Shown: positions 28,171 to 44,755 of the stretch, piece after piece
Position numbering within the stretch: position 1 is the first letter of the stretch
Layout: each line of letters starts with the position of its first letter
Assembly (NCBI GenBank): GCA_964504305.1
Contig: CAZDEB010000004.1
Span: 75,441 to 139,440, forward strand
Reading direction: 5' to 3'
Origin: an uncultured Candidatus Nemicrothrix sp.
GTDB lineage: Bacteria > Actinomycetota > Acidimicrobiia > Acidimicrobiales > Aldehydirespiratoraceae
Length of the DNA stretch: 64,000 nt
Notes under the pieces: generated by a model
What the model saw: the letters and a program-made list of their open reading frames with translations, nothing else
Database searches by the model: none
What the model was told of the DNA's origin: nothing
Made by a program: the position numbers and the translations under genes

Positions 28171-29171
28171 CCGCCGACCGAATCCTTGGTATCGAGACGT
28201 CGTGTGACGAAACAGCCGCGTCGATCGTCAACCGCGGCACCGATGTGATGTCCTCGGTGGTCGCTAGCCAAATAGAGATCCACGCGCGGTACGGCGGTGT
28301 CGTCCCCGAGGTGGCCAGCCGTGCTCATGTCGAGACGATCATGCCGGTGATTGCTCAGTCGATCGTCGAGGCCGGAGTCCAAGACGCGCAAATCGAAGCG
28401 GTTGCCTCAACGTACGGTCCCGGACTTGTGGGGGCGCTGTTGATCGGGGTGTCGGCTGCGAAGGCGATGTCGCTCGTTTGGGATGTGCCATTCGTGGCCG
28501 TCAACCATCTCGAAGCTCACTTGTATGCCGCGTTTCTCGAAGAACCCGATCTCGAGATGCCGTTGGTGATCTTATTGGTCTCGGGTGGTCACACGATGCT
28601 GATCGTCATGGAAGATCACCTCCGCTATCGCGTGCTGGGAAGCACTCTCGACGACGCGGCCGGCGAGGCCTTCGACAAGGTTGCTCGTTACATGGATCTC
28701 GGCTATCCGGGCGGTCCGGTAATCGATCGCCTGAGTGTCGACGGCGATCCTCAAGCGATTCGGTTCCCGCGGGCCATGGCCAGCGACGGCTGGGACTTCT
28801 CGTTCAGTGGGGTCAAGACCGCGGTGGTCAACCACGTTCGCAAGAACCCCGGTGTCGAGGTTCACGATGTTGCGGCATCGTTTCAGGAGGCCGTTGTGGA
28901 CGTGCTCATAAGAAAGGCTCGCAAGGCCGCGCAAGAGGTCGGAGCAAAAGGTCTGTGTCTCGCAGGCGGTGTGGCGGCGAACTCGCGTTTGCGCGAACGG
29001 TTGCTCGATGTTTGCGTGGCCGACGGCTACCGGGCATTTCTCCCCAGCCGGTCGATGTGCACCGATAACGCGGCGATGGTGGCGGCAGCAGCGTGGTGGC
29101 GGTTGCAGGCCGATGGTCCGTCTCCGCTCGACATCGGCGCCAATCCCTCTTTACGACTACCAGTGGTGTAG
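28167..29171 (+). CDS. tsaD: tRNA N6-adenosine threonylcarbamoyltransferase TsaD
   Basis: Start set at ATG 28167 (ATGA overlap with rimI). ILGIETSCDETAASIV...VNHLEAHLYA...LLVSGGHT. Confidence 0.95.
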   Translation: MTADRILGIETSCDETAASIVNRGTDVMSSVVASQIEIHARYGGVVPEVASRAHVETIMPVIAQSIVEAGVQDAQIEAVASTYGPGLVGALLIGVSAAKAMSLVWDVPFVAVNHLEAHLYAAFLEEPDLEMPLVILLVSGGHTMLIVMEDHLRYRVLGSTLDDAAGEAFDKVARYMDLGYPGGPVIDRLSVDGDPQAIRFPRAMASDGWDFSFSGVKTAVVNHVRKNPGVEVHDVAASFQEAVVDVLIRKARKAAQEVGAKGLCLAGGVAANSRLRERLLDVCVADGYRAFLPSRSMCTDNAAMVAAAAWWRLQADGPSPLDIGANPSLRLPVV

Positions 29172-29252
29172 TTGGGCCATCTGGCCCTATCACCTCTGAC
29201 CTTGGTCGTTACGGGCTGAACTGACTCTCGGAGCACGTCGACGCTTCTATTA

Positions 29253-30968
29253 ATGAAGAAGGTGCTCGGGCGTCGATTGACGCGAGAACAGAACTTCACG
29301 ACCCGGATGCGCCGCGGCATCAGAGCGGGGTTCGCGGTTGTACTGATAATCGCCGTTGCCGTAGCGATCTTGGTCGAGTCGGTGGCCGCCGATGCTGACT
29401 CCGATCTCGCTGCGCTCGAGGTGGTCGAAGAGCAGCGCTTCGCTTTGATGGAGCTAAGAGCTGATCTGTCTGAGCTTGTCGATGTAACCGATCCCAGAGA
29501 TGCTGCCGAACATCGTTTGGCGGTGGGTGTTTTGATGCACGACATCAACGCGCGTCAGGTTGACCTGTTGATCGTTGCGCCCTCCGCGGGGAGTATTCGC
29601 ATCGATTTCTTAGCGAACCCCGTGAGCTTGACCGAGATGGTTCATACAACCCTCGACTCTGCTCAAACCGTGATCGACCGGGTCTCGTCGGATCCGTCCT
29701 CGGCTGGCGTTGGTATTGCTTTGCAACAAGCTCGACACAATCTCGAGTTGCTTCAACCGGCTTTTCAGACAATGGAACTCGAGCACACAACTGACCTCGC
29801 CGCGGCGGCTTCGAAGTTGCGCTTTGCGGGCCGCATCATCGTTGTCGTCGCGCTACTTGCTGCTGTTGTACGTCTGTTTGTGCTCGGTCGGCCGCTTCTC
29901 AATCAGCTTTTGCGGATCGAGAAGGAACACGAGGAGTCGCGCCAGCAGCACCAACAAGAGGGCGTGCGACGTGATCTTGCCTCTCGGCTGGCCGAGGGCC
30001 TCGAGACCGCCGAGAGCGAAGCTGGGGTGTGTCAGGTTGTTGAACGAGCTCTTGGTCAAGTCGCCCATGACCATCCCGCCGAATTGCTGCTGGCCGACTC
30101 GTCCAAGGCTCGACTTTCTGCCGCGGCCACGAACACCAACGCCCCGGCCCCGGGCTGTGGCGTTCAGTCGCCGTGGTCGTGTCCGGCGGTTCGACGGGCC
30201 GTAACGATGCACTACCCGGATTCGGATTCGGTTAGGGCGTGCCCTCACCTCGCTGATCGTCAGGACCGTGCTCGAGGGGCCGTCTGCGTCCCGGTGTCTT
30301 TCATGGGCGACGCTATGGGAGTCTTGCACGTGACTGGTGAGGCCGGCTGGGAACCCACCGCGCTTGAGGTCGAGAGGTTGGAGATCCTGGCCGGAAACGC
30401 CGCCGTTAGGTTGGGTTCTATCCGGTCCTTCATGAAGGCCGAGATCCAGGCATCGACCGACGCGTTGACCGGTCTCGCCAACCGGCGAGCGACCGAGGAC
30501 TTTGTTGGCGATGCGCTCGGCTCGGGTGGTTGTGGGTCGGTGGCCATCGCCGATCTTGACCATTTCAAGCGCTTGAACGACAGCCTTGGCCACGAGGCGG
30601 GGGACCGGGCGTTGCGAATGTTTGCCGATGTTGTTCGTGACTCCCTTCGAGACAACGACTGGTCAGGTCGCTGGGGTGGCGAAGAATTTGTGATCTATCT
30701 GCCGGAGTTGTCGGCTCGCGAATCGGTGGCGGTACTCGATCGCGTCCGCGAGAACCTCGCCTCTGTGTGTGCGCGAGCCGAGATACCCGAAGTCACTGTT
30801 TCGATCGGCGTGGTCGACACCAACGCGTCTCGTTCGCTCGAGGAGTTGGTGGCGATGGCTGACGATTGCCTGTATTTCGCGAAGGAGAACGGCCGCGACC
30901 AAGTAGTCGTCGGCCCAGTTCCGATCGCATCTGAATCCGATCCAACCAGCCCGAAGGTCCGCTCATGA
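29253..30968 (+). CDS. Membrane diguanylate cyclase (DGC-A): TM, helical ectodomain, TM, Cys4 GAF-like module, GGDEF (GGEEF, intact RxxD I-site)
   Basis: 571 aa. TM segments at about residues 25-45 and 193-212. Cys302/310/330/345 lie in ELLLADSS...GCGVQSPWSCPAVRR...CPHL...AVCVP...GVLH. GGDEF core ADLDHFKRLND...RDNDWSGRWGGEEF, with GGEEF at nt 30675-30689. Confidence 0.88.
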   Translation: MKKVLGRRLTREQNFTTRMRRGIRAGFAVVLIIAVAVAILVESVAADADSDLAALEVVEEQRFALMELRADLSELVDVTDPRDAAEHRLAVGVLMHDINARQVDLLIVAPSAGSIRIDFLANPVSLTEMVHTTLDSAQTVIDRVSSDPSSAGVGIALQQARHNLELLQPAFQTMELEHTTDLAAAASKLRFAGRIIVVVALLAAVVRLFVLGRPLLNQLLRIEKEHEESRQQHQQEGVRRDLASRLAEGLETAESEAGVCQVVERALGQVAHDHPAELLLADSSKARLSAAATNTNAPAPGCGVQSPWSCPAVRRAVTMHYPDSDSVRACPHLADRQDRARGAVCVPVSFMGDAMGVLHVTGEAGWEPTALEVERLEILAGNAAVRLGSIRSFMKAEIQASTDALTGLANRRATEDFVGDALGSGGCGSVAIADLDHFKRLNDSLGHEAGDRALRMFADVVRDSLRDNDWSGRWGGEEFVIYLPELSARESVAVLDRVRENLASVCARAEIPEVTVSIGVVDTNASRSLEELVAMADDCLYFAKENGRDQVVVGPVPIASESDPTSPKVRS

Positions 30969-32680
30969 AGAGCCTCCGCCGTTCTCGTACCATCCCCCTG
31001 CACGTTCGTTTCGCGCGCGGCTATCAAATCGGGTTCATTATCGCCATCTTGGCCGCCGCGACAGTGTGGGTAACGACCCAATCTGGGATGGACGAGGTCG
31101 AAGCGCGGACCAATTCTGCACGCGATGCCGCCGAACTCGTAGAAGATGTACGTCAGTCGGCCAACTTGTTGGACGAAATTTCTGATTCGCCCATGTCGCT
31201 GTCGGTAAGGTCCGACTTGACCCGAAAGATCAATGAGACGGCGGCGAGTTGGCGGTCGGTTTCGACCGCCAACGATATGCCTGACGCGGTCATGGTGCAG
31301 GTCTCGGGTCGGCGCGGGCTCGAGGGCGAGTTTGACATCTTTTTGAATCAGGCCGCAGCCTTGGCCGCCATCGGCAATGAAGGGCGTGACGCATTATCGA
31401 CCACGGATTCGGTGACCGCCGCGACTCTCGAGTCCAAGGCCGATGACCTCGCCGACCGGGTTGGGTTGGTTCTGGCGGTCTACAACGCTGAGACCGATGC
31501 CGCTTCGGCCGGTATCCGTGCGACCACGACGACGGCGACGCTTGTGTCGCTCGCGATGGTTGCCGCATTGATCGCCATATTGCTACGGCCGTTACGCCGG
31601 TTGATGGAGAGGGACAGCCGGGCTCTAAGCGCCGCACATCAACAGCATCGTGACGAGTCGGACCGTCGAGATCTGGCCAGCCACTTGGCCGATGGACTCG
31701 AAGCAGCGGAATCCGAAGACGAGACCCATCGGGTGGTCGAGCGGGTGTTTCTGCGGCTGTTGCCAAATACCGCCGTCGAGCTCTTACTTGCCGATTCGGC
31801 CAAAGGCGCGGTGAGTCGGGCGGTGACTCACCCGACGGCCGGTGGGCCCGGTTGTGACGTTGACTCGCCGTGGTCCTGCCCGGCTGTGCGTCGCGGCCGC
31901 ACCATGGTCTATGAGGACTCTGAGTCGATCAATGCGTGCCCCCATTTGAGTAACCGGCCCGGCGGAGCGTGCTCGGCGACCTGCGTCCCGCTGTCGTTCA
32001 TGGGCGACTCAATGGGCGTGGTCCACACGGCTGGACCGGTCGGTCAGGTTATGGAACCAGCTGCGGTTGATTTGCTGGGCTCGATCGCATCTCAGGTTGC
32101 GGTTCGGATTGGGACTATTCGTTCGTTCAAGCAGGTTGAGCTACGGGCATCTACCGATCCGTTGACCGGGCTTCCGAACCGTCGGGCTACCGAGGAGCAG
32201 CTGCGACGGTTGGTCAACGATACCGAAACGGGAGCGGTCGTGATGGCCGACCTTGATCGCTTCAAGCAGTTGAACGACAAGTACGGCCACGAGGCCGGCG
32301 ACCGTGCTCTTCGCCTGTTTGCCGATTCGGTACGCCAGGCCTTGCGCGATCAGGACTGGATAGGTCGCTGGGGCGGCGAAGAGTTTGTTCTTGCCTTGCC
32401 CGCCATGACCGCGCCGATGGCCAAGGAAGCTCTGGACCGGGTCCGAGAGCACCTGGCCGATGCCTGTTTACGGGCCGAAGCGCCAACCGTCACCGTATCG
32501 ATGGGGGTTGTTGACTCGACCGCGGCGGTTGCCTGCGACGAACTGATACGCCTTGCCGATGAAGCCCTCCTGGCGGCCAAGACCCAAGGTCGCGACCGGG
32601 TTGTGGTTGGGCCGGTGGTTGTGACAGAGATGGTTGGTTTCTCCGAGGAAACAACCGACAAGTCTGCCGAGACGGCTTGA
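30965..32680 (+). CDS. Membrane diguanylate cyclase (DGC-B), paralog of DGC-A
   Basis: 571 aa. ATGA overlap with DGC-A. Cys297/305/325/340 in the same motif. ADLDRFKQLND...RDQDWIGRWGGEEF. Confidence 0.88.
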   Translation: MKSLRRSRTIPLHVRFARGYQIGFIIAILAAATVWVTTQSGMDEVEARTNSARDAAELVEDVRQSANLLDEISDSPMSLSVRSDLTRKINETAASWRSVSTANDMPDAVMVQVSGRRGLEGEFDIFLNQAAALAAIGNEGRDALSTTDSVTAATLESKADDLADRVGLVLAVYNAETDAASAGIRATTTTATLVSLAMVAALIAILLRPLRRLMERDSRALSAAHQQHRDESDRRDLASHLADGLEAAESEDETHRVVERVFLRLLPNTAVELLLADSAKGAVSRAVTHPTAGGPGCDVDSPWSCPAVRRGRTMVYEDSESINACPHLSNRPGGACSATCVPLSFMGDSMGVVHTAGPVGQVMEPAAVDLLGSIASQVAVRIGTIRSFKQVELRASTDPLTGLPNRRATEEQLRRLVNDTETGAVVMADLDRFKQLNDKYGHEAGDRALRLFADSVRQALRDQDWIGRWGGEEFVLALPAMTAPMAKEALDRVREHLADACLRAEAPTVTVSMGVVDSTAAVACDELIRLADEALLAAKTQGRDRVVVGPVVVTEMVGFSEETTDKSAETA

Positions 32681-34302
32681 ACGTGTCGTCGCCTCTTGCC
32701 TTGCGGTCGCGGTGGGCCAAGACCACCCGGTACCAGCGGCTGAACTTTGCCGTCGTGGGCTGTTTGGTGGTGATGTTTGCTCTAGTCGTCGCGCTCGTGG
32801 CGACCGTGCGGATTGTCGATCGCCGTGCTGGCGAATTGCTGGCCGAAGCTCAACATTTGACGGCGACGGCGGCGGACGCGCGTGACGCATCGACGGCCTT
32901 GCTGACTTGGCAGGGCGGTTCCAACGACGCCCGTGTTGCCCTTGCCAATGCCCGTGACATGATGAATTCGCACCTCGCTGAAGTGGACACCTTTGCATCT
33001 CCTGATGAGCGTCAGGAATTGCAACGTCTCAATGATCAACTAGCAAAGCTGGTAGACGCTTCGGCCGGGGTCGCGATTTCGTCGACTACCGAAGCGGCAA
33101 GGCTCAGCGCCGACTACGAGGTTCTCGCTCAACAGTTTGCCAACCGCGGCCAAGACGTGTCCGAGCGGGCCCTCGGTGACCTTGACGGATGGTTCTATGG
33201 GATACAACTTGTGGCGGCGGTCGCGGCGGCGGTGTTCTTGATGATCGTCTTGTCGGTGATTTTGCCGCTCAGTCGGTCGATCGAGCGTTCGCTGAGCAAA
33301 CTGCAGGACTGGCGTGATCGTTCGGCTCGCGAGAGTGCGCGGCGTTTGTTGAACAGCCAGGTTTCCGATGGTCTTGATGTCGCTGACGAAGAGGGAAAGG
33401 CTCGCGCCGTCCTCGAGAGAGCGCTCAGAGTTGCTGCCCCGGACTTGCGGGCCGAACTCTTACTGGCCGATTCCTCGAAAGCTCACCTGCGGGTTGCGGT
33501 CGAGCATCCTGATCACGGCCGGGCCGGATGTGGTGTTGTTTCGCCGTGGTCGTGTCCAGCGGTGCGCAGGGGTACGACCATGGTCTTCGAGGACTGGTCT
33601 TCGATTCGGACCTGTCCTCACCTCGCTCGCCACGAAGACCCCTGCTCGGCGGTATGTAGCCCGCTGACCTTCATGGGCGAACCAATGGGTGTACTGCACA
33701 CAACCGGGAAGGTCGGGGAACCTCCGAGTCAAGAAGTCGTCGAGGACCTGTCGATGATCGCCGCCGAGAGCGCAACTCGTCTGGGAACGCTTCGAGCGTT
33801 CGCTCGAGCGGAGTTGCAGGCCTCCACTGACGTGTTGACAGGCCTGCCGAATCGTCGATCGACTGAAGACTGCATCCGCCATGCCATCGACTCGGTTTCG
33901 GGTGGGGCGATTGGATTGTTCGAAATCGAAGGCCTCATTGATCTCAATGACCGGTTGGGCAAAACAACTGGCGACAGGGCGATCAAGGTTGTGGCCGAGT
34001 CGCTCCAGTTCTCGAATCGCGACGCTGATTTTATTGGCCGCTGGGCTGGTGCGGAGTTTGTAGCTGTCTTGGCGGATAAAGCCTCAAATGAGGCGCGGTC
34101 GGTTATCGATCGCATCCGGCATGAACTCGAAGAATCGTTGGCGGCCGCCGACATATCGGGGTTGGTGGTCTGGGCCGGAATCGCCGACACCAGACACGAG
34201 AATACGGTGCGAAGTCTTTTGCAGTCGGCCAGCGACCAGATCATGGCCGCCAGGAGTGGTTTGGAGCATCACGTCGTGAGTTCGGCTTCGACACCTGAGT
34301 AG
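32677..34302 (+). CDS. Degenerate GGDEF paralog (DGC-C): same architecture, AGAEF in place of GGEEF, I-site retained
   Basis: 541 aa. TTGA overlap with DGC-B (GTG 32683 is an alternative start). Cys285/293/313/327 are conserved. The active site is degenerate: FEIEGLIDLND, and RDADFIGRWAGAEF at nt 34045-34059. Confidence 0.85.
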   Translation: MNVSSPLALRSRWAKTTRYQRLNFAVVGCLVVMFALVVALVATVRIVDRRAGELLAEAQHLTATAADARDASTALLTWQGGSNDARVALANARDMMNSHLAEVDTFASPDERQELQRLNDQLAKLVDASAGVAISSTTEAARLSADYEVLAQQFANRGQDVSERALGDLDGWFYGIQLVAAVAAAVFLMIVLSVILPLSRSIERSLSKLQDWRDRSARESARRLLNSQVSDGLDVADEEGKARAVLERALRVAAPDLRAELLLADSSKAHLRVAVEHPDHGRAGCGVVSPWSCPAVRRGTTMVFEDWSSIRTCPHLARHEDPCSAVCSPLTFMGEPMGVLHTTGKVGEPPSQEVVEDLSMIAAESATRLGTLRAFARAELQASTDVLTGLPNRRSTEDCIRHAIDSVSGGAIGLFEIEGLIDLNDRLGKTTGDRAIKVVAESLQFSNRDADFIGRWAGAEFVAVLADKASNEARSVIDRIRHELEESLAAADISGLVVWAGIADTRHENTVRSLLQSASDQIMAARSGLEHHVVSSASTPE

Positions 34303-34348
34303 TTCGCCCGCGATTCGGGGTTGTCCCTCAGCGGTGCTGGTTCTATCG

Positions 34349-34375
34349 TTAGCACTCGGCACATCAGAGTGCTAA
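34349..34375 (+). promoter_or_regulatory. CIRCE operator (HrcA binding site) upstream of groES
   Basis: TTAGCACTC-GGCACATCA-GAGTGCTAA is a perfect match to the CIRCE consensus TTAGCACTC-N9-GAGTGCTAA. It lies 24 nt upstream of the groES ATG. Confidence 0.92.
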
Positions 34376-34398
34376 CGAACACGATCTCGGAGGATCGA

Positions 34399-34686
34399 AT
34401 GAATCTGCAGCCACTTGAGGATCGCATCGTGGTCCGCTCCAGCGAAGCGGAATCCACCACCGCCAGCGGCCTCGTCATTCCAGACAGCGCCCAAGAAAAG
34501 CCTCAGCAAGGTGAAGTCCTAGCGGTGGGTCCCGGCCGTCGTTCCGACGCTGGCGACCTCATCCCTGTCGATGTCGCCGTTGGCGACGTTGTCGTCTACA
34601 GCAAGTACGGCGGCACCGAAATCACCAGCGAAGGCGAGGATCTTCTCATCCTCAACGCACGCGACGTGCTTGCCAAGGTCGGCTGA
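34399..34686 (+). CDS. groES: Co-chaperonin GroES
   Basis: Start set at ATG 34399 ([46 protein letters not shown]). 95 aa. The track ORF starting at 34321 would run across CIRCE. Confidence 0.96.
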
Positions 34687-34691
34687 GGTAA

Positions 34692-36344
<1,653 letters not shown>

Positions 36345-36374
36345 CCCTTCGGCTACCACTCCCAAAAATTGTGC

Positions 36375-36402
36375 AACGACCCGGGCTTGGGCCCGGGTCG
36401 TT
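36375..36402 (+). terminator. Stem-loop terminator candidate after groEL
   Basis: AACGACCCGGGC-TTGG-GCCCGGGTCGTT is a perfect 12-bp GC-rich stem, 30 nt after the groEL stop. The T-tract is short (TTT). Confidence 0.6.
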
Positions 36403-36427
36403 TCGCGTCCGGGGTTACGCTCGGTCG

Positions 36428-36850
36428 ATGAAGACCGGGAGACATCTGCACCGAGCTGCGGTCGCGGCCGCGGCGGGTGCGGTGGGCCTGCTTTTTGCTC
36501 CGTGGGGGCGTTCGGGCGAGGTGGGTCGATCGAGCATCCAGTTATTACGTTCGGCGACCGTTCTCGACGTGCTGAGCGACATGGAGCGCATTGCGTTGTT
36601 GTTGCTGTGGCTGGCGGTCATTGTCGCGGTAGCCGGCGCGTTGGTGGCATCTTCGTGGGGGCGACCCCGATTGGTTGCCGGTCTGCTGATCCCGCTCGGA
36701 CCGACGCTGGTATTTGCCGCCTTGGTTGTAAACCGGTCGCCGTTAAACGTTGAGTGGGGAGCCGGTGCAAGCGCAACGTTGGGCCTGACGGCGTCCGCGC
36801 TTGCTGGTCTGATATTCATAAGCAGTGCATCTGGCGGAGGACGATCATGA
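36428..36850 (+). CDS. Hypothetical membrane protein (about 4 TM)
   Basis: Start set at ATG 36428, downstream of the terminator hairpin. Four hydrophobic segments. No recognisable family. Confidence 0.5.
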   Translation: MKTGRHLHRAAVAAAAGAVGLLFAPWGRSGEVGRSSIQLLRSATVLDVLSDMERIALLLLWLAVIVAVAGALVASSWGRPRLVAGLLIPLGPTLVFAALVVNRSPLNVEWGAGASATLGLTASALAGLIFISSASGGGRS

Positions 36851-36881
36851 CAACTAACCCCCGAAGCAATGGCAGCCACCG

Positions 36882-38891
36882 ATGACTGACGACAACGCTG
36901 GCCTGTGGGGTCCGCGGTCAAACGACGACGAATCGATTCCGGCCGCGCCGGCTGCGCCAGCCGCCCGCTCGACCTCGCAGTGGGCCCCACCACTGGCACC
37001 GTCGGCCGCGGACCCTGGTCGCCATGGCGGGGATGGATCCTCCGATGGTGACGAGCTCGTCTTTGTGCCGGAGTCGATCGAGATCGCTCCCGTAGTCGCC
37101 GAGGTTCGCAAGGCCAGCAAGGTGGCGACGCGAATTGTCGCCGCGGTCATCGCCGCGGCGATGGTTGGTGGCGGCGCCCTCTTGGCGTTTGATGCGGGCA
37201 GTGCCGACGGCGGCGCCGCTTCGCCCGAGGAGGCTTTCGAGGTCCTTCTAAGCGCGGCCGAGGCCGGCGACGTTTTGGCCATCGCCGAAATTCTCGAGCC
37301 AACCGAACGAGAGACTCTCCTGGATGCCGGGGTAGATATCGCGTCCGAACTGTCTCGTCTGGGGGTGTTGTCGACCGACCTTGATCTCTCGGCGGTGAGC
37401 GGCGTCCAACTCGAGTTGGGCGGTTTCGAACCCAGAGTCGAGCGTCCTCGCTCGGGTCTGGCCCACATCTACGCCGGGAAAGGGGTTGTGACGGTCGCGG
37501 TGGATGGCGCCGAACTGCCTTTCGGGTCGCTGCTCACCGATGACCTGTTTCCTCTCGACTATTCGTACTCTTCGACCGATTTGGTCGAACCGCAACAGGA
37601 CCCGATTGTGGCGGTCCAACGCAACGGTCGGTGGTACCTGAGTGTCTGGTACAGCGTTGCCGAACTGGCCCGGTTGACTCTCGATAAACCTTTGCCCGAT
37701 CTGGGGCGACGTCCCGCCAGCATCGGTGGCCCCACCCCCGAGGCCGCGGTCCGGTCCTTTCTCGACGACGCTCTTCGCCTGGATGTTCGTCGAATGATCG
37801 GTGGTCTTGATCCCAACGAGATGGCCGCGCTTTACGATTATGCGCCGCTGTTTCTCGACTCGGCGACTGCTTCGGCCAACAACACACTTCAGAGCCTCGA
37901 GGACGATGGTTGGGTATGGGGGCTAGACCAACTCGAGTTGGCCTCCGAAACCGACGGCGACGTAGCCCGCGTGCAACTCGTGTCGGCCTCATTTTCTGCT
38001 TCGGGTGATCGTGGCACCATCAGCGTCTCGGTTGGTGCCGAGGCCGTTGTTGTCGATGCCCGCACCATCGATCCGTTCTTCGGTGACGAGACCACCAGCC
38101 ACTTCGAGTTCGGCGGGGACTGCTTCTCTGCTTCTTTCGATGACGGCTCGGGTCCACACACCGAGCAGTACTGCGGCTCGATCAACGAGTCGGTGCCGTT
38201 CATCGCCGGCGGAATCGGTTCGCTTGGTTCGCTCGGGCTCGCCGACTCGCTGACGGTTGTCACCCATCTGGTTGACGGCCAGTGGTATATCTCGCCGGTT
38301 CGCACCGGCCGCGACGCGATCGTTCGTTCTCTGGAGATGATCGAACCAGATCAACTCTCGGAGTTCATCGACTCGCTCGACTACGTTGCGGGTGCTGTTC
38401 GTGGTTCTGATGGCGGTTTCGCAACGGTCGGGGCCTCGGATTACGGATCGACCGACTCAGGAGCATTCGGCCCGGCGATCCCGATCGTCGCCGACAACCT
38501 GGCTTTGCTGGCACCGGGTCTCGATCCGCTATTTGCCTACGATCTCGATGCCCAAAACTACACGTACGAAGTCGACTATTTTGCGCCGGCGCTCGGGTCC
38601 GACTTGGATGTGGTGGCCGGCTTGTACGCCTCGGTTGATTCCCCGTCGGGTGAGGTAGCGGTGGTCGTACTCGGCCTTGCCGACTCGATCGATGCCACCA
38701 GCTTGTTCGATCCTTTGATTGCCGGTCATCCCGAAGCCGTCGGGTCACACGATGGTCAACGGCTGTCGATCACCAGTGCTGCGGGCCAGTCCGTCGTTGT
38801 GCACGTTGACGGCTCGCGACTACTAATTGTGGGTGGCTATGGTGCCAGCGCGCTAGACGTGGCCGCCGCTGCCGATATTCAGCTGGGCTGA
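36882..38891 (+). CDS. Hypothetical single-pass membrane-anchored protein with large extracytoplasmic region
   Basis: 669 aa. Pro/Ala-rich N-terminus, one TM (RIVAAVIAAAMVGGGALLAF). Two internally similar modules end in NGRWYLSVWY and DGQWYISPVRT. No family recognised. Confidence 0.6.
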   Translation: MTDDNAGLWGPRSNDDESIPAAPAAPAARSTSQWAPPLAPSAADPGRHGGDGSSDGDELVFVPESIEIAPVVAEVRKASKVATRIVAAVIAAAMVGGGALLAFDAGSADGGAASPEEAFEVLLSAAEAGDVLAIAEILEPTERETLLDAGVDIASELSRLGVLSTDLDLSAVSGVQLELGGFEPRVERPRSGLAHIYAGKGVVTVAVDGAELPFGSLLTDDLFPLDYSYSSTDLVEPQQDPIVAVQRNGRWYLSVWYSVAELARLTLDKPLPDLGRRPASIGGPTPEAAVRSFLDDALRLDVRRMIGGLDPNEMAALYDYAPLFLDSATASANNTLQSLEDDGWVWGLDQLELASETDGDVARVQLVSASFSASGDRGTISVSVGAEAVVVDARTIDPFFGDETTSHFEFGGDCFSASFDDGSGPHTEQYCGSINESVPFIAGGIGSLGSLGLADSLTVVTHLVDGQWYISPVRTGRDAIVRSLEMIEPDQLSEFIDSLDYVAGAVRGSDGGFATVGASDYGSTDSGAFGPAIPIVADNLALLAPGLDPLFAYDLDAQNYTYEVDYFAPALGSDLDVVAGLYASVDSPSGEVAVVVLGLADSIDATSLFDPLIAGHPEAVGSHDGQRLSITSAAGQSVVVHVDGSRLLIVGGYGASALDVAAAADIQLG

Positions 38892-40075: not shown

Positions 40076-40225
40076 ATGGAAAAGCCGACACCCGATGCAT
40101 CCAAGCTGCTCGCCCAATGGGAAGAGTGGGAGCGAGGCGAAACTCCGCCCGGCAAGGTCATGAGCAACCTGAAGACCGGTGGGCTGCCCGACCTGTTGCG
40201 GACCCTCACCGAGTCCGACTCCTGA
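40076..40225 (+). CDS. Candidate small protein (49 aa), unannotated in the ORF track
   Basis: Hand translation gives MEKPTPDASKLLAQWEEWERGETPPGKVMSNLKTGGLPDLLRTLTESDS*. Third-position G/C bias matches neighbouring genes. The overlapping track frame (40117...) is Arg/Pro-rich noise here. Confidence 0.4.
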   Translation: MEKPTPDASKLLAQWEEWERGETPPGKVMSNLKTGGLPDLLRTLTESDS

Positions 40226-40311
40226 GCAAGCCAAACCAAACGGGGAGCTGGTGGGCTCCGCCTACGGGCCGGGGCGGGCCTCAACACATCCCGCGGCCGC
40301 CCGCCGCTCGA

Positions 40312-40950
40312 TTGGGTGGTCCGCCGCCGTGGTCGGGGCTTCGTGCCCAAGACCGAGTTGCTCGACTCGATCAGTTAATCGAGCGCTTGGCCACTCGTTC
40401 TGCGCAAGTCGTCGAAGGGGGGCCAACCGCGGCGACCGCCTCGGCGGTGTTGTGTGTGCTGTACGAGGACGAGGGCGAACTCCATGTCGTGCTGACTCGG
40501 CGTTCGCCCAACATGCGTCACCATGCGCACGAGATTTCGTTCCCCGGGGGGCGTCAAGATCCATCCGATGCCGACTTGTGGGCTACCGCGTTGCGCGAGT
40601 CGGCCGAAGAGATCGGGTTGGATCCCGGCACGGTCGTTCCGGTCGGGCAACTCGACAGCTTCGTAACCGTCGGGTCGCGTTCGCTGATTCATCCCTTTGT
40701 CGCCGTGTGCGCCGGGCGGCCTGTTGTAGAGGTGGCGTCGCCCCGCGAGGTCGAAGCGGTTGTCCACGTGAGCCTGGCCGAGCTGCTGAGCGACGAGGTG
40801 TGGCGTGAGGAGATTTGGCAGTTCGACGATCGGGGCGAGAGAGCTCTTACTTTCTTCGAGATCGTCGGAGACACGATTTGGGGGGCGACTGGCGCAATGT
40901 TGCGCCAGCTTCTCGCAATAGCTACCGATACTGAGGCCCAGTCTGGCTGA
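40312..40950 (+). CDS. Nudix hydrolase (CoA pyrophosphatase-like)
   Basis: Nudix box GGRQDPSDADLWATALRESAEEIGL. The start is uncertain: TTG 40312, TTG 40387, or the unlikely track start at 40117. Confidence 0.75.
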   Translation: MGGPPPWSGLRAQDRVARLDQLIERLATRSAQVVEGGPTAATASAVLCVLYEDEGELHVVLTRRSPNMRHHAHEISFPGGRQDPSDADLWATALRESAEEIGLDPGTVVPVGQLDSFVTVGSRSLIHPFVAVCAGRPVVEVASPREVEAVVHVSLAELLSDEVWREEIWQFDDRGERALTFFEIVGDTIWGATGAMLRQLLAIATDTEAQSG

Positions 40951-40959
40951 CCGCGGTGG

Positions 40960-42738
40960 TTGGTGTCCTCAAATTCGGGTCGCGCCAGCCGACAAGTTCG
41001 TATGCCTTCGAATATCGGTCGTCCCGCGAGAGAGCGCAAACGGGTTCACCTAGCGCCGTACCAGCGGGTCGTCACACTCTCGCTGTCGTTGTTGCTGCTG
41101 ATGACGCTGATCGTTGGGCTCGGCACTTTAGGGGTGCATCACATGCGGTCCGACTTCGATGATTTGGTCGCCGAGGACCTTCCCCGCTTTGACGCGTTGT
41201 TGCATCTCGACCGCGACCTGTTCAGGGCCCAACTGGCGCTCGAAAACGCAATGCTCGCCAGCAACGCAAACCAACGTTTCGAGAGCCTGGCGGAGTACCA
41301 GAATCAGGTTGATCGTACCGAGAATCGTTGGCTCGCATACCTTGACGTGAGCGCCGGAGGTTCCCAAGAACTTCAGTGGCAGTCCGACTACGACGCGGCG
41401 CGAGCTCGATGGCTTGCTTCTTCGGCGGCCCTCGCGGCGCTTATCGAAGCAGACGGCGGTAGCGACTTACACCTCACGACCGAACTTGCATTGGCCCAGG
41501 CCGACTTTGTGACCATGCGCGATGTTGTCGATCACCTGGAGGAGGACATCGCCGAACCTCTGATCGACGCGTCGACTGCGTCGGTCACCGATCAAGCCGA
41601 TACCACCACCAGCGATCTCACCACCCTTCTCGCGATCGGGCTCATGCTGGGCGCGGGGATTTCGTTCACCACCTATCGGGCCGCTCGCCAACAGCATCGC
41701 CAGTCAGGGCGCAGCGAGGCCGAGCAAGCCGCCGACACGGCGCGGGCGCTGTTCGAGGCCGAACTTGGCCAAGCCCTCGATATGGCCCAAGACGAGATGG
41801 GGGCCACCCACGCCGTCGAATTGGTGCTGGCCGCTGAGCTTCCGGGCCGTCCCGCCGAACTCTTGTTGGCCGATTCGAGCCACGCCCATCTCACCCAGGC
41901 GCTTACTACCGACAAGGAGCACGGCGGTCCGGGTTGTGGCGTCTTCGAGCCGGGCGATTGCCCGGCGGTTCGTCGCGGTACCACCCTGACCTTTGACGAC
42001 AGCGAGGCTTATTCGGCCTGTCCGTACCTTCGTGGCCGAGACATCGGCCCGACTTCGGCAGTGTGCGTTCCGGTGAGCGTCGCTGGTCGTTCGGCAGGAG
42101 TGTTGCACTCGACGGGCGAGGTGAACGCCGTCGCTAGCGGTGTGGTCGTGCACAAGCTCGAAGAAGTGGCCGACCGCGCCGGCGATCGCATCGGGGTGAT
42201 CCGAGCGTTCGCTCAGTCCCAAACATTGGCGTCAACCGACGCATTGACGGGACTAGCCAACCGGCGGTCGTTCGAGAACGAAGCCAACAGTCGGCTTCGT
42301 TCCGGTAGTAAGCTGGCCTTTGTTTACGGCGATCTAGATCATTTCAAGTTGCTAAACGACAAACATGGCCACGACGCCGGGGATCGAGCTCTGCGCTTGT
42401 TCTCTCGAGTGCTGAGCGAATCGATCCGTGAAACCGACATGGCCGCTCGTTGGGGCGGTGAAGAGTTTGTGCTCATGTTTGCCAACGCCGACACCGAAAT
42501 TGCGGTGCGGCTGATCGAGCGCATCCGCGAGAACATGATCTTGGCCCAGGCCGCATCGACCACGCCGCCGTTTACGGCCAGCTTTGGTGTCTCTGATACG
42601 TCGATGGCCGAACACCTCGACGAACTGGTCAACTTGGCCGACGAATCGTTGCTCGAAGCCAAGAAGCGCGGTCGCAACTGCACGGTGGTGTCGCAGGGCC
42701 ATCTTGGCGAGGCTGATCCCGAACCGGTCGAGGCCTGA
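40960..42738 (+). CDS. Membrane diguanylate cyclase (DGC-D), fourth Cys4 GAF-like/GGDEF paralog with 4HB-type ectodomain
   Basis: 592 aa from GTG 40960 (alternative ATG 41002). Cys326/334/354/369 lie in ELLLADSS...GCGVFEPGDCPAVRRG...CPYL...AVCVP...GVLH. GDLDHFKLLND...RETDMAARWGGEEF. Confidence 0.87.
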   Translation: MVSSNSGRASRQVRMPSNIGRPARERKRVHLAPYQRVVTLSLSLLLLMTLIVGLGTLGVHHMRSDFDDLVAEDLPRFDALLHLDRDLFRAQLALENAMLASNANQRFESLAEYQNQVDRTENRWLAYLDVSAGGSQELQWQSDYDAARARWLASSAALAALIEADGGSDLHLTTELALAQADFVTMRDVVDHLEEDIAEPLIDASTASVTDQADTTTSDLTTLLAIGLMLGAGISFTTYRAARQQHRQSGRSEAEQAADTARALFEAELGQALDMAQDEMGATHAVELVLAAELPGRPAELLLADSSHAHLTQALTTDKEHGGPGCGVFEPGDCPAVRRGTTLTFDDSEAYSACPYLRGRDIGPTSAVCVPVSVAGRSAGVLHSTGEVNAVASGVVVHKLEEVADRAGDRIGVIRAFAQSQTLASTDALTGLANRRSFENEANSRLRSGSKLAFVYGDLDHFKLLNDKHGHDAGDRALRLFSRVLSESIRETDMAARWGGEEFVLMFANADTEIAVRLIERIRENMILAQAASTTPPFTASFGVSDTSMAEHLDELVNLADESLLEAKKRGRNCTVVSQGHLGEADPEPVEA

Positions 42739-43192: not shown

Positions 43193-44755
43193 ATGAACGC
43201 GGCCGCACCGGGCTCTGACGGCACCTTCGACACAGTTGTGGTGGTCGATTTCGGCGCCCAATACGCGCAACTTATTGCTCGGCGGGTGCGCGAGGCTCAC
43301 GTCTACAGCGAAATCGTCGCCCCCACCATTTCGGCGGCCGAGCTCGAGGCAAGGCAACCGGCGGGCATCATCTTCAGTGGTGGCCCCGATTCGGTGCACG
43401 CCGAAGGGGCGATTGCCATCGACCCCGACGTTTACGACCTCGGCATCCCGATCCTCGGCATTTGTTACGGAGCACAGCTCATTGCCCAACAAAATGGTGG
43501 ACGGGTTGGGCGAACCGAACGAGGCGAATACGGCCGCACCGTCCTAACCGTCGCCGCCGATGGTGGTTGCCTTCTGACCGACACGCCCCCGACTCAAAAT
43601 GTCTGGATGAGCCATTTCGATGCCATCGTCGAGCCGCCGATCGACGTCCGGGCCACGGCCTCGACTCCCGACGCTCCGGTCGCGGCTTTCGAGGGCCGCC
43701 AGCGGGGGCTGTACGGCGTGCAGTTCCATCCCGAAGTGATGCACACCCAACACGGTCAGCAAGTGATCGAACGTTTCCTGCGTGATGGTTGTGGCATCGA
43801 AGCCAATTGGACCATGGCATCGATCATCGACACGTCGGTCGAACAAATCCGCAACCAGGTTGGCGACCGTAACGCCATCTGCGGACTGTCCGGGGGTGTC
43901 GATTCGGCGGTCGCGGCGGCGTTGGTTCACAAAGCCATCGGCGATCAGCTCACGTGCGTGTTCGTCGACACTGGTCTGATGCGGCTCGACGAGGGTGCCC
44001 AAGTGGTCGAAACCTTCGAACGCAACTTCGGGGTGCGGCTCATTCATGTCGATGCCGGCCAACGATTCTTTGCTGCCCTGTCCGGCATCACCGAACCCGA
44101 GGCCAAACGCAAAGCGATCGGCGAGTTGTTCATTCGAGTGTTCGAGGATGCAAAAGCCGACGTGGCCGACGCCGATTTCCTTGTTCAAGGCACGTTGTAC
44201 CCCGACGTGATCGAATCGGGCAGCGAGCACGCGTCGACCATCAAGAGCCATCACAATGTCGGGGGCCTGCCCGATGACATCGACTTTGCGTTGGTCGAAC
44301 CGTTGCGCAGTCTCTTCAAAGACGAAGTCCGCCAGGTTGGGTCAGAGCTCGGGTTGCCCGACGAAATCGTGCAGCGTCAGCCGTTCCCCGGCCCGGGATT
44401 GGGTGTGCGGATAATTGGCGAAGTCACCCCCGACAAGGTCGCGACTTTGCAGCACGCCGACTTCATCGTGCGCGAAGAGTTGCGATTGGCGGGCCTCGAA
44501 CGCGAGATCTGGCAGTCCTTTGCCGTGCTTCCCGATATTCGAAGCGTGGGGGTGATGGGGGACGAACGCACCTACGGCCACCCGATCATCATTCGTGCCG
44601 TCACCAGCGAAGACGCCATGACCGCCGACTGGGCTCGTATTCCCTACGACGTTCTCGAAACAATGAGCAGCCGCGTCATCAACGAAGTCGCGGGAGTCAA
44701 CCGTGTCGCCTACGACATCACGTCAAAGCCGCCGGGGACCATCGAATGGGAGTAG
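43193..44755 (+). CDS. guaA: GMP synthase (glutamine-hydrolysing)
   Basis: 520 aa. [19 protein letters not shown]...ILGICYG...[11 protein letters not shown]...ends PGTIEWE. Confidence 0.97.

Follow-up and report, generated by a model that had tools for sequence, protein, structure and literature searches.

A tandem array of GGDEF paralogs

We analysed a stretch of 64,000 nucleotides, here called the window, from an uncultured Candidatus Nemicrothrix sp. (assembly GCA_964504305.1, contig CAZDEB010000004.1, positions 75,441 to 139,440). Its central part encodes three tandem paralogs of the diguanylate cyclase (DGC) family, all on the + strand: DGC-A (29253–30968), DGC-B (30965–32680), and DGC-C (32677–34302). 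The first two are of the active type and carry the signature GGEEF. The third was singled out in a sequence-only reading of the window as a degenerate GGDEF protein that keeps its inhibitory site (I-site) and a four-cysteine (Cys4) sensor, and thus as a candidate receptor of cyclic di-guanosine monophosphate (c-di-GMP) or a regulatory subunit. This interpretation is supported by our results, as far as comparative sequence analysis allows.

The genes of the array overlap. DGC-A and DGC-B share the nucleotides ATGA, and the stop codon of DGC-B overlaps the TTG start of DGC-C (TTGA, 32677–32680). From this TTG, DGC-C has 541 residues; the Joint Genome Institute call (P0001) starts two codons further 3', at the GTG at 32683, and gives 539 residues. 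An exact-sequence look-up of P0001 retrieved no entry. The array is flanked by tsaE-tsaB-rimI-tsaD on one side and by groES-groEL on the other. The order tsaE-tsaB-rimI-tsaD-A-B-C-groES-groEL is found in seven genomes, i.e., that of the window and those labelled L001, L002, L004, L007, L009, and L014 (the latter a 4.48-Mb contig of GCA_033344915.1). Wherever the calls were mapped, the genes called for B and C share 4 nucleotides: in L001 (GTGA), L004 (ATGA), and L014. Since the order is conserved and the called genes overlap, DGC-C is probably translationally coupled to the active paralogs A and B, with which it is consistently co-located. A scan of positions 28900–34800 for promoters and terminators showed no promoter-like site and only terminator-like matches inside genes, a result that is uninformative for a high-GC genome.

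The active site and the I-site in the C clade

The signature motif of DGC-C is AGAEF, exactly at positions 34045–34059 as first read, where A, B, and the fourth paralog of the window, DGC-D, have GGEEF. The Ala in its third position corresponds to E370 of PleD, the protein whose numbering we use for equivalent residues. The metal- and substrate-binding block DxDxFKxLND, which reads ADLDHFKRLND in A, ADLDRFKQLND in B, and GDLDHFKLLND in D, is replaced by FEIEGLIDLND (33919–33951), with E at the position of D327, I at that of K332, and N335 kept. The replacement of VSIGV by VWAGIA, the third change originally reported, is real on the side of DGC-C (34168–34185) and overstated on the other side: VSIGV occurs literally in A alone, B having VSMGV and D having ASFGV.

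A protein search provided, in addition to the window protein, 24 full-length or nearly full-length relatives (38–55% identity) from metagenome-assembled genomes (MAGs) of Acidimicrobiales/Actinomycetota. We compared, column by column, 24 sequences of the C clade with 25 A and B sequences. All 24 orthologs have a non-canonical signature (AGAEF, SGAEF, SGSEF, TGSEF, AGGEF, GGAEF, NGAEF, AGAQF, GGAQF, ADAQF, or HGAQF). The equivalent of D327 is D in all 25 A and B sequences and E in 23 of the 24 of the C clade. The equivalent of K332, a Lys in A and B, is I, V, A, S, R, or L in the C clade, and that of E370, a Glu in A and B, is A (19), S (4), or G (1). At E371, which is also Glu in A and B, we found E in 17 orthologs and Q in 7. 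The Lys of A and B at K442 is R in 16 orthologs and K in 5, and the Arg of A and B at R446 is never R in the C clade; in DGC-C itself these two positions are R526 and E530. The guanine contacts fare better, because the Asn of A and B at N335 persists in 18 orthologs and the Asp at D344 in all 24. The description of DGC-C as degenerate is thus borne out across the clade: the equivalents of E370, K332, and R446 are lost in 24/24 orthologs, and K442 is mostly R.

At each place where sequence distinguishes an active cyclase (an acidic residue in motif position 3, the D327/K332 pair, and the K442/R446 pair), DGC-C departs from the active pattern. The Ala in motif position 1 would alone be insufficient evidence of inactivity, because activity persists in an AGDEF enzyme that has kept the acidic residue (PMC3974145). 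Mutants engineered to carry GGAEF have no activity (PMC3229569). Because the Mg2+-binding and catalytic Glu and the phosphate-binding Lys/Arg are gone, the GGDEF domain of DGC-C would be unable to make c-di-GMP, and the protein is very probably catalytically inactive. Variation in the motif also occurs among relatives of the B clade: P0033 and P0035, from ENA assemblies, have GGEAF instead of GGEEF and are otherwise nearly identical to active-looking relatives, a difference that is either natural or due to a sequencing error.

We built a neighbour-joining tree from the cytoplasmic region. Its bootstrap support is 100 for the C clade, 99 for the A clade, 97 for the B clade, and 99 for the three together. 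The A and B clades are the sisters of the C clade, whose stem is long. Since the C-type sequences form a single clade in which all members have a non-canonical signature, catalysis was presumably lost once, before these lineages diverged.

The I-site had a different fate. RxxD binds intercalated c-di-GMP dimers. In DGC-C it reads RDAD (residues 448–451, 34018–34029) and lies exactly five residues before the AGAEF that starts at A457, as the initial reading had it (RDADFIGRWAGAEF, 34018–34059). R448 and D451 are invariant in 24/24 orthologs, each time five residues before the motif. Of 43 columns of the GGDEF domain that are invariant in A and B, 33 are variable in the C clade and only six have one and the same invariant residue in both groups: D433, R448, D451, R455, W456, and F461. 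The probability that six columns drawn at random from the 43 include both I-site residues is 0.017. The secondary Arg of the site, equivalent to R390 of PleD, is R479 in the window protein (34111–34113) and is kept in 16/24 orthologs. Because RxxD is kept, and in most orthologs the secondary Arg too, DGC-C is likely to bind c-di-GMP at this site. The combination of a degenerate active site (A-site) with an intact I-site would place it in the receptor class of PopA, PelD, and CdgI. In GGDEF domains at large, RxxD is found in only 44–57% of cases (PMC3974145).

Both residues of the I-site were retained although the GGDEF domain of the C clade evolves about 1.5 times faster than its counterparts. 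The mean pairwise identity of this domain is 0.42 in C, versus 0.63 in A and 0.67 in B, whereas the GAF domain of C matches its paralogs in conservation (0.68 versus 0.65 in A and 0.60 in B). The ratio of non-synonymous to synonymous substitution rates (dN/dS) is 0.153 for the GGDEF domain of C, 0.091 for that of B, and 0.045 for the GAF domain of C, all from a single pair of genomes (L002/L004, dS ~0.87), the sole usable one because synonymous sites are saturated in distant pairs (dS above 1.5 or undefined). The GGDEF domain of C is relaxed relative to that of B, yet clearly constrained, and both the I-site and the sensor domains of DGC-C are maintained by selection. An Acidimicrobiia MAG (SZUA-87, L013) contains an example of real decay, in contrast to DGC-C and subject to the quality of the assembly. 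All that it carries between tsaD and groES is a frameshifted remnant of the array, about 1.2 kb long (QIIW01000134.1, 9550–10763), with a 30-residue deletion across the Cys region and GPGD in place of RxxD, i.e., with the Arg lost. In this MAG, A, B, and C seem to have disappeared as a unit, with the same caveat on assembly quality.

Sensor domains, fold, and surroundings

DGC-C is predicted to have two transmembrane segments, at residues 24–42 (32746–32802; Kyte-Doolittle score 3.03 in a 19-residue window) and 178–196 (33208–33264; score 3.06). The region between these two hydrophobic segments, of about 135 residues (43–177, 32803–33207), is a predicted extracytoplasmic loop domain. All four paralogs, A to D, have two strongly hydrophobic segments. 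The N-terminal part of DGC-C (residues 1–205) is poorly conserved, with a mean identity of 0.33 within the C clade. The cytoplasmic part (residues 202–541) was modelled with AlphaFold2 from an alignment of 89 sequences, with a mean predicted local distance difference test score (pLDDT) of 94.1. The model shows, in this order, a helix, an alpha/beta domain similar to GAF, a helix of 31 residues, and the GGDEF domain. The GAF-fold sensor domain was delimited from the model and Foldseek at residues 238–351 (33388–33729), the long signalling helix that links it to the GGDEF domain was delimited with DSSP at residues 352–382 (33730–33822), and the degenerate GGDEF domain spans residues 382–526 (33820–34254) according to Pfam PF00990 and the fold match.

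Foldseek matched the cytoplasmic model to cyclases with a sensor-helix-GGDEF organisation (IsPadC 5llw, Dcsbis 4zmu, and DosP). The GGDEF part superposes on GGDEF structures bound to c-di-GMP (GcbC 5euh, 3ign, DgcB 6tts, and PleD). The match to PleD, WspR, GcbC, and DgcB has a probability of 1.0, with target-normalised template modelling scores (TM-scores) of 0.7–0.8 for the isolated GGDEF domains. The Pfam GGDEF profile (PF00990, cut-off 23.8) gives 74.9 bits for C versus 118 for A and 131 for B, and TIGR00254 gives 71.7 bits for DGC-C (cut-off 37.4). With every model of active cyclases, the score of DGC-C is well below those of A and B. On the NCBIfam model of the LapD c-di-GMP receptor (NF045673), C scores higher (52 bits) than B (41) and A (33), all of them far below the cut-off of 1020. 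The signalling helix is 84–89% conserved inside each clade and very similar among A, B, and C. It has two conserved substitutions specific to the C clade, E364 (Q in A/B) and A374 (S in A/B), which could, speculatively, tune the choice of a partner.

The sensor domain of DGC-C holds five Cys (C285, C293, C313, C323, and C327), one more than first counted. The four that had been said to be kept are C285 (33529–33531), C293 (33553–33555), C313 (33613–33615), and C327 (33655–33657). These are invariant family-wide, and C323 is variable. Among the matches listed, the four are present in 120/120 homologs, which include HAMP-GAF-GGDEF proteins of other Actinobacteria, and two of them sit in 'CP' motifs at the start of helices. 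Equivalent Cys GAF domains are found in A, B, and D. The isolated domain was modelled with a pLDDT of 95.2 and has a GAF fold (Foldseek probability 1.0), even if its Pfam GAF_2 score of 20.8 bits falls short of the cut-off (28.6). The nearest structures are Lcd1 (which binds cAMP), DosS/DosT (heme), PtsP, and the free Met-sulfoxide reductase fRMsr, with TM-scores of 0.6–0.73. Hence, 'Cys4 sensor' is an accurate description of a GAF fold with four invariant Cys. The four may form a redox or a metal or iron-sulphur (Fe-S) site, with Zn, Fe-S, or a disulfide as candidates. A PDB sequence search with the cytoplasmic fragment matched only the GGDEF half and gave no solved homolog of the Cys4 GAF domain, and our literature search on a link between GAF, Fe-S, and diguanylate cyclases returned no relevant publication.

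A perfect CIRCE element (controlling inverted repeat of chaperone expression, the HrcA operator) is present downstream of the array, at 34349–34375 (TTAGCACTC-N9-GAGTGCTAA). Since it lies between the stop codon of DGC-C (34302) and the ATG of groES (34399), groES-groEL probably have their own heat-shock-regulated promoter, apart from the cyclase genes. Downstream of groEL (36371–38891), the window contains two open reading frames (ORFs), of 159 (hydrophobic) and 669 residues, which are found at the same position in L005, L006, L007, L009, and L013 with 34–45% identity. The fourth paralog, DGC-D (40960–42738), has the motifs GGEEF and RETD; it is not part of the A/B/C clade and clusters with an Iamia-like sequence. 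Its neighbours are genes for a NUDIX hydrolase (40117–40950) and guaA (43193–44755). In L014, groEL is followed by a NUDIX gene, an inosine monophosphate dehydrogenase-like gene, and guaA, with no copy of DGC-D there.

Possible roles of DGC-C and known systems

The reading we favour, with moderate confidence, is that DGC-C is a membrane-anchored pseudo-diguanylate-cyclase that would bind c-di-GMP at its I-site and regulate its co-expressed paralogs or relay from them. It would be co-transcribed, and probably translationally coupled, with the active A and B. GGDEF catalysis needs two substrate-loaded domains in a dimer. DGC-C could thus act on or with A and B by forming non-productive GGDEF-GGDEF pairs, or it could relay the level of c-di-GMP. 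Contacts with A and B might involve the GGDEF domains or the helix and result in feedback, in a non-productive heterodimer, or in relay to another partner. This action would be modulated by c-di-GMP at the protein's own I-site and by the input to its own sensor domains. The conserved A-B-C order and the stop/start overlaps favour DGC-C working with A and B, and we tentatively regard the two as possible direct partners. A more elaborate version, which we think doubtful, takes A, B, and C as an obligate heteromeric complex with three inputs in which the pseudo-cyclase is the product-sensing subunit. There, the extracytoplasmic domain and the Cys4 GAF domain of C would decide when c-di-GMP bound to the I-site cross-links and silences the catalytic subunits. 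If true, a clade of Acidimicrobiia would have conserved a dedicated receptor subunit inside a cyclase complex.

Several points weigh against a c-di-GMP-binding pseudo-cyclase that regulates A and B. We infer the binding of c-di-GMP, the identity of the partner, and the direction of regulation from sequence comparisons. The sole evidence for a partner or an output is the conserved co-location and the overlapping codons with A and B, and such an arrangement indicates co-expression, not physical association. A six-frame motif scan found no EAL, HD-GYP, or PilZ motif in the window and an Rfam scan found no riboswitch or other Rfam family there, so no output component can be named. The secondary Arg of the I-site is lost in 8/24 orthologs, and the dN/dS values come from one genome pair. 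Finally, RxxD is invariant in 120/120 members of the family among the matches listed, so its retention in the C clade could partly reflect a structural role specific to this family.

This last point is shared with an alternative we consider unlikely, in which DGC-C is a c-di-GMP-independent dominant-negative protein or scaffold that forms heterodimers with A or B via the signalling helix and so blocks catalysis, for which two active half-sites are needed. Its own sensor input would set the timing, and RxxD would be kept for the fold or the interface instead of a ligand. The family-wide invariance of RxxD makes a family-specific structural coupling conceivable. The conservation of the helix across A, B, and C fits this alternative, as do the multiple heteromeric GGDEF contacts made by the GGDEF domain of CdgI, and the strongest constraint in C, that on the GAF domain (dN/dS of 0.045), means that sensing matters. 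However, about half of all GGDEF domains lack RxxD, which is therefore not needed for the fold. Moreover, the C clade lost invariance at 33 of the 43 positions but not at the two I-site residues, and two in three orthologs have also retained the secondary Arg.

The residues that remain in the substrate pocket suggest another role, to which we give a low probability: a sensor of guanosine tri- or diphosphate (GTP/GDP), akin to the GTP-binding degenerate GGDEF domains that exert allosteric control over a partner domain. The guanine contacts (D344 equivalent in 24/24 orthologs, N335 equivalent in 18/24), the kept equivalents of R366, G369, and F372, and the conserved E at D327 are compatible with it. 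Yet the phosphate and Mg2+ residues (K332, E370, K442, and R446 equivalents) are all lost, N335 is replaced by T or S throughout one subclade, and no enzymatic partner domain is fused to DGC-C. It is even less probable that DGC-C keeps a weak cyclase activity, as the AGDEF enzyme VCA0965 does. An enzyme can be active with an Ala in motif position 1 (PMC3974145), and two C orthologs even have a G there (GGAEF and GGAQF). However, none of the 24 orthologs has D or E in motif position 3, and the engineered GGAEF mutants cited above are inactive. The clade has also lost the equivalents of K332 and R446 and mostly has R in place of K442. Given the loss of the catalytic and phosphate/Mg2+ residues, we rejected residual cyclase activity and GTP sensing as primary readings of DGC-C. 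The least probable alternative, by far, is a functionless duplicate in decay. The faster evolution of the GGDEF domain and the decayed array of one MAG (L013) would fit it. Selection and conservation effectively refute it. The 24 orthologs form one clade and have intact ORFs, even at 38% identity; C has dN/dS values of 0.15 (GGDEF domain) and 0.045 (GAF domain); and its place in the operon is conserved.

We know of no experimental study of c-di-GMP signalling in Acidimicrobiia. As a pseudo-cyclase, DGC-C is a further example of an already known type of protein and leaves current concepts unchanged. The locus is a natural case in which one of three co-expressed sensor-cyclase paralogs turned into a pseudoenzyme once and was then maintained. 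This makes it suited to an idea derived from CdgI, namely that degenerate GGDEF proteins regulate active cyclases via GGDEF-GGDEF contacts modulated by c-di-GMP.

The active, I-site-regulated cyclases PleD, WspR, GcbC, and DgcB share with DGC-C the GGDEF fold and an RxxD five residues before the signature. Unlike in these enzymes, the Glu for catalysis and metal binding and the Lys/Arg for phosphate binding are absent from DGC-C, so that its I-site cannot be a means of inhibiting its own catalysis by the product. Dcsbis/PA2771 (4zmu) and IsPadC (5llw) resemble its cytoplasmic part in the succession of a sensor domain, a long helix, and a GGDEF domain, but they are active enzymes. For the four invariant Cys of its GAF domain, we found no counterpart among the solved GAF domains that our searches matched. 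PopA, PelD, and CdgA have domain contexts other than that of DGC-C, each with a defined downstream process; unlike them, DGC-C has no output identifiable apart from its paralogs. As cited in PMC3974145, these proteins of Caulobacter, Pseudomonas, and Bdellovibrio, respectively, have degenerate GGDEF domains, bind c-di-GMP, and act in regulatory cascades; CdgA is the subject of PMC3271064.

The closest precedent is CdgI (YeaI) of Escherichia coli, which resembles DGC-C in being a stand-alone GGDEF protein that is attached to the membrane and in which the A-site is degenerate and the I-site intact (PMC5635695). It binds c-di-GMP, its GGDEF domain contacts several other GGDEF domains, and it shares its type of N-terminal domain with active DGC paralogs (PMC5635695). 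It was proposed to inhibit DGCs in a manner modulated by c-di-GMP, even if it could not be detected in standard conditions and its role in the cell had yet to be established (PMC5635695). The two proteins are not orthologous, and CdgI has another sensor architecture, without a Cys4 GAF domain. Unlike CdgI, DGC-C is encoded in a conserved, probably translationally coupled array of three genes together with its active paralogs.

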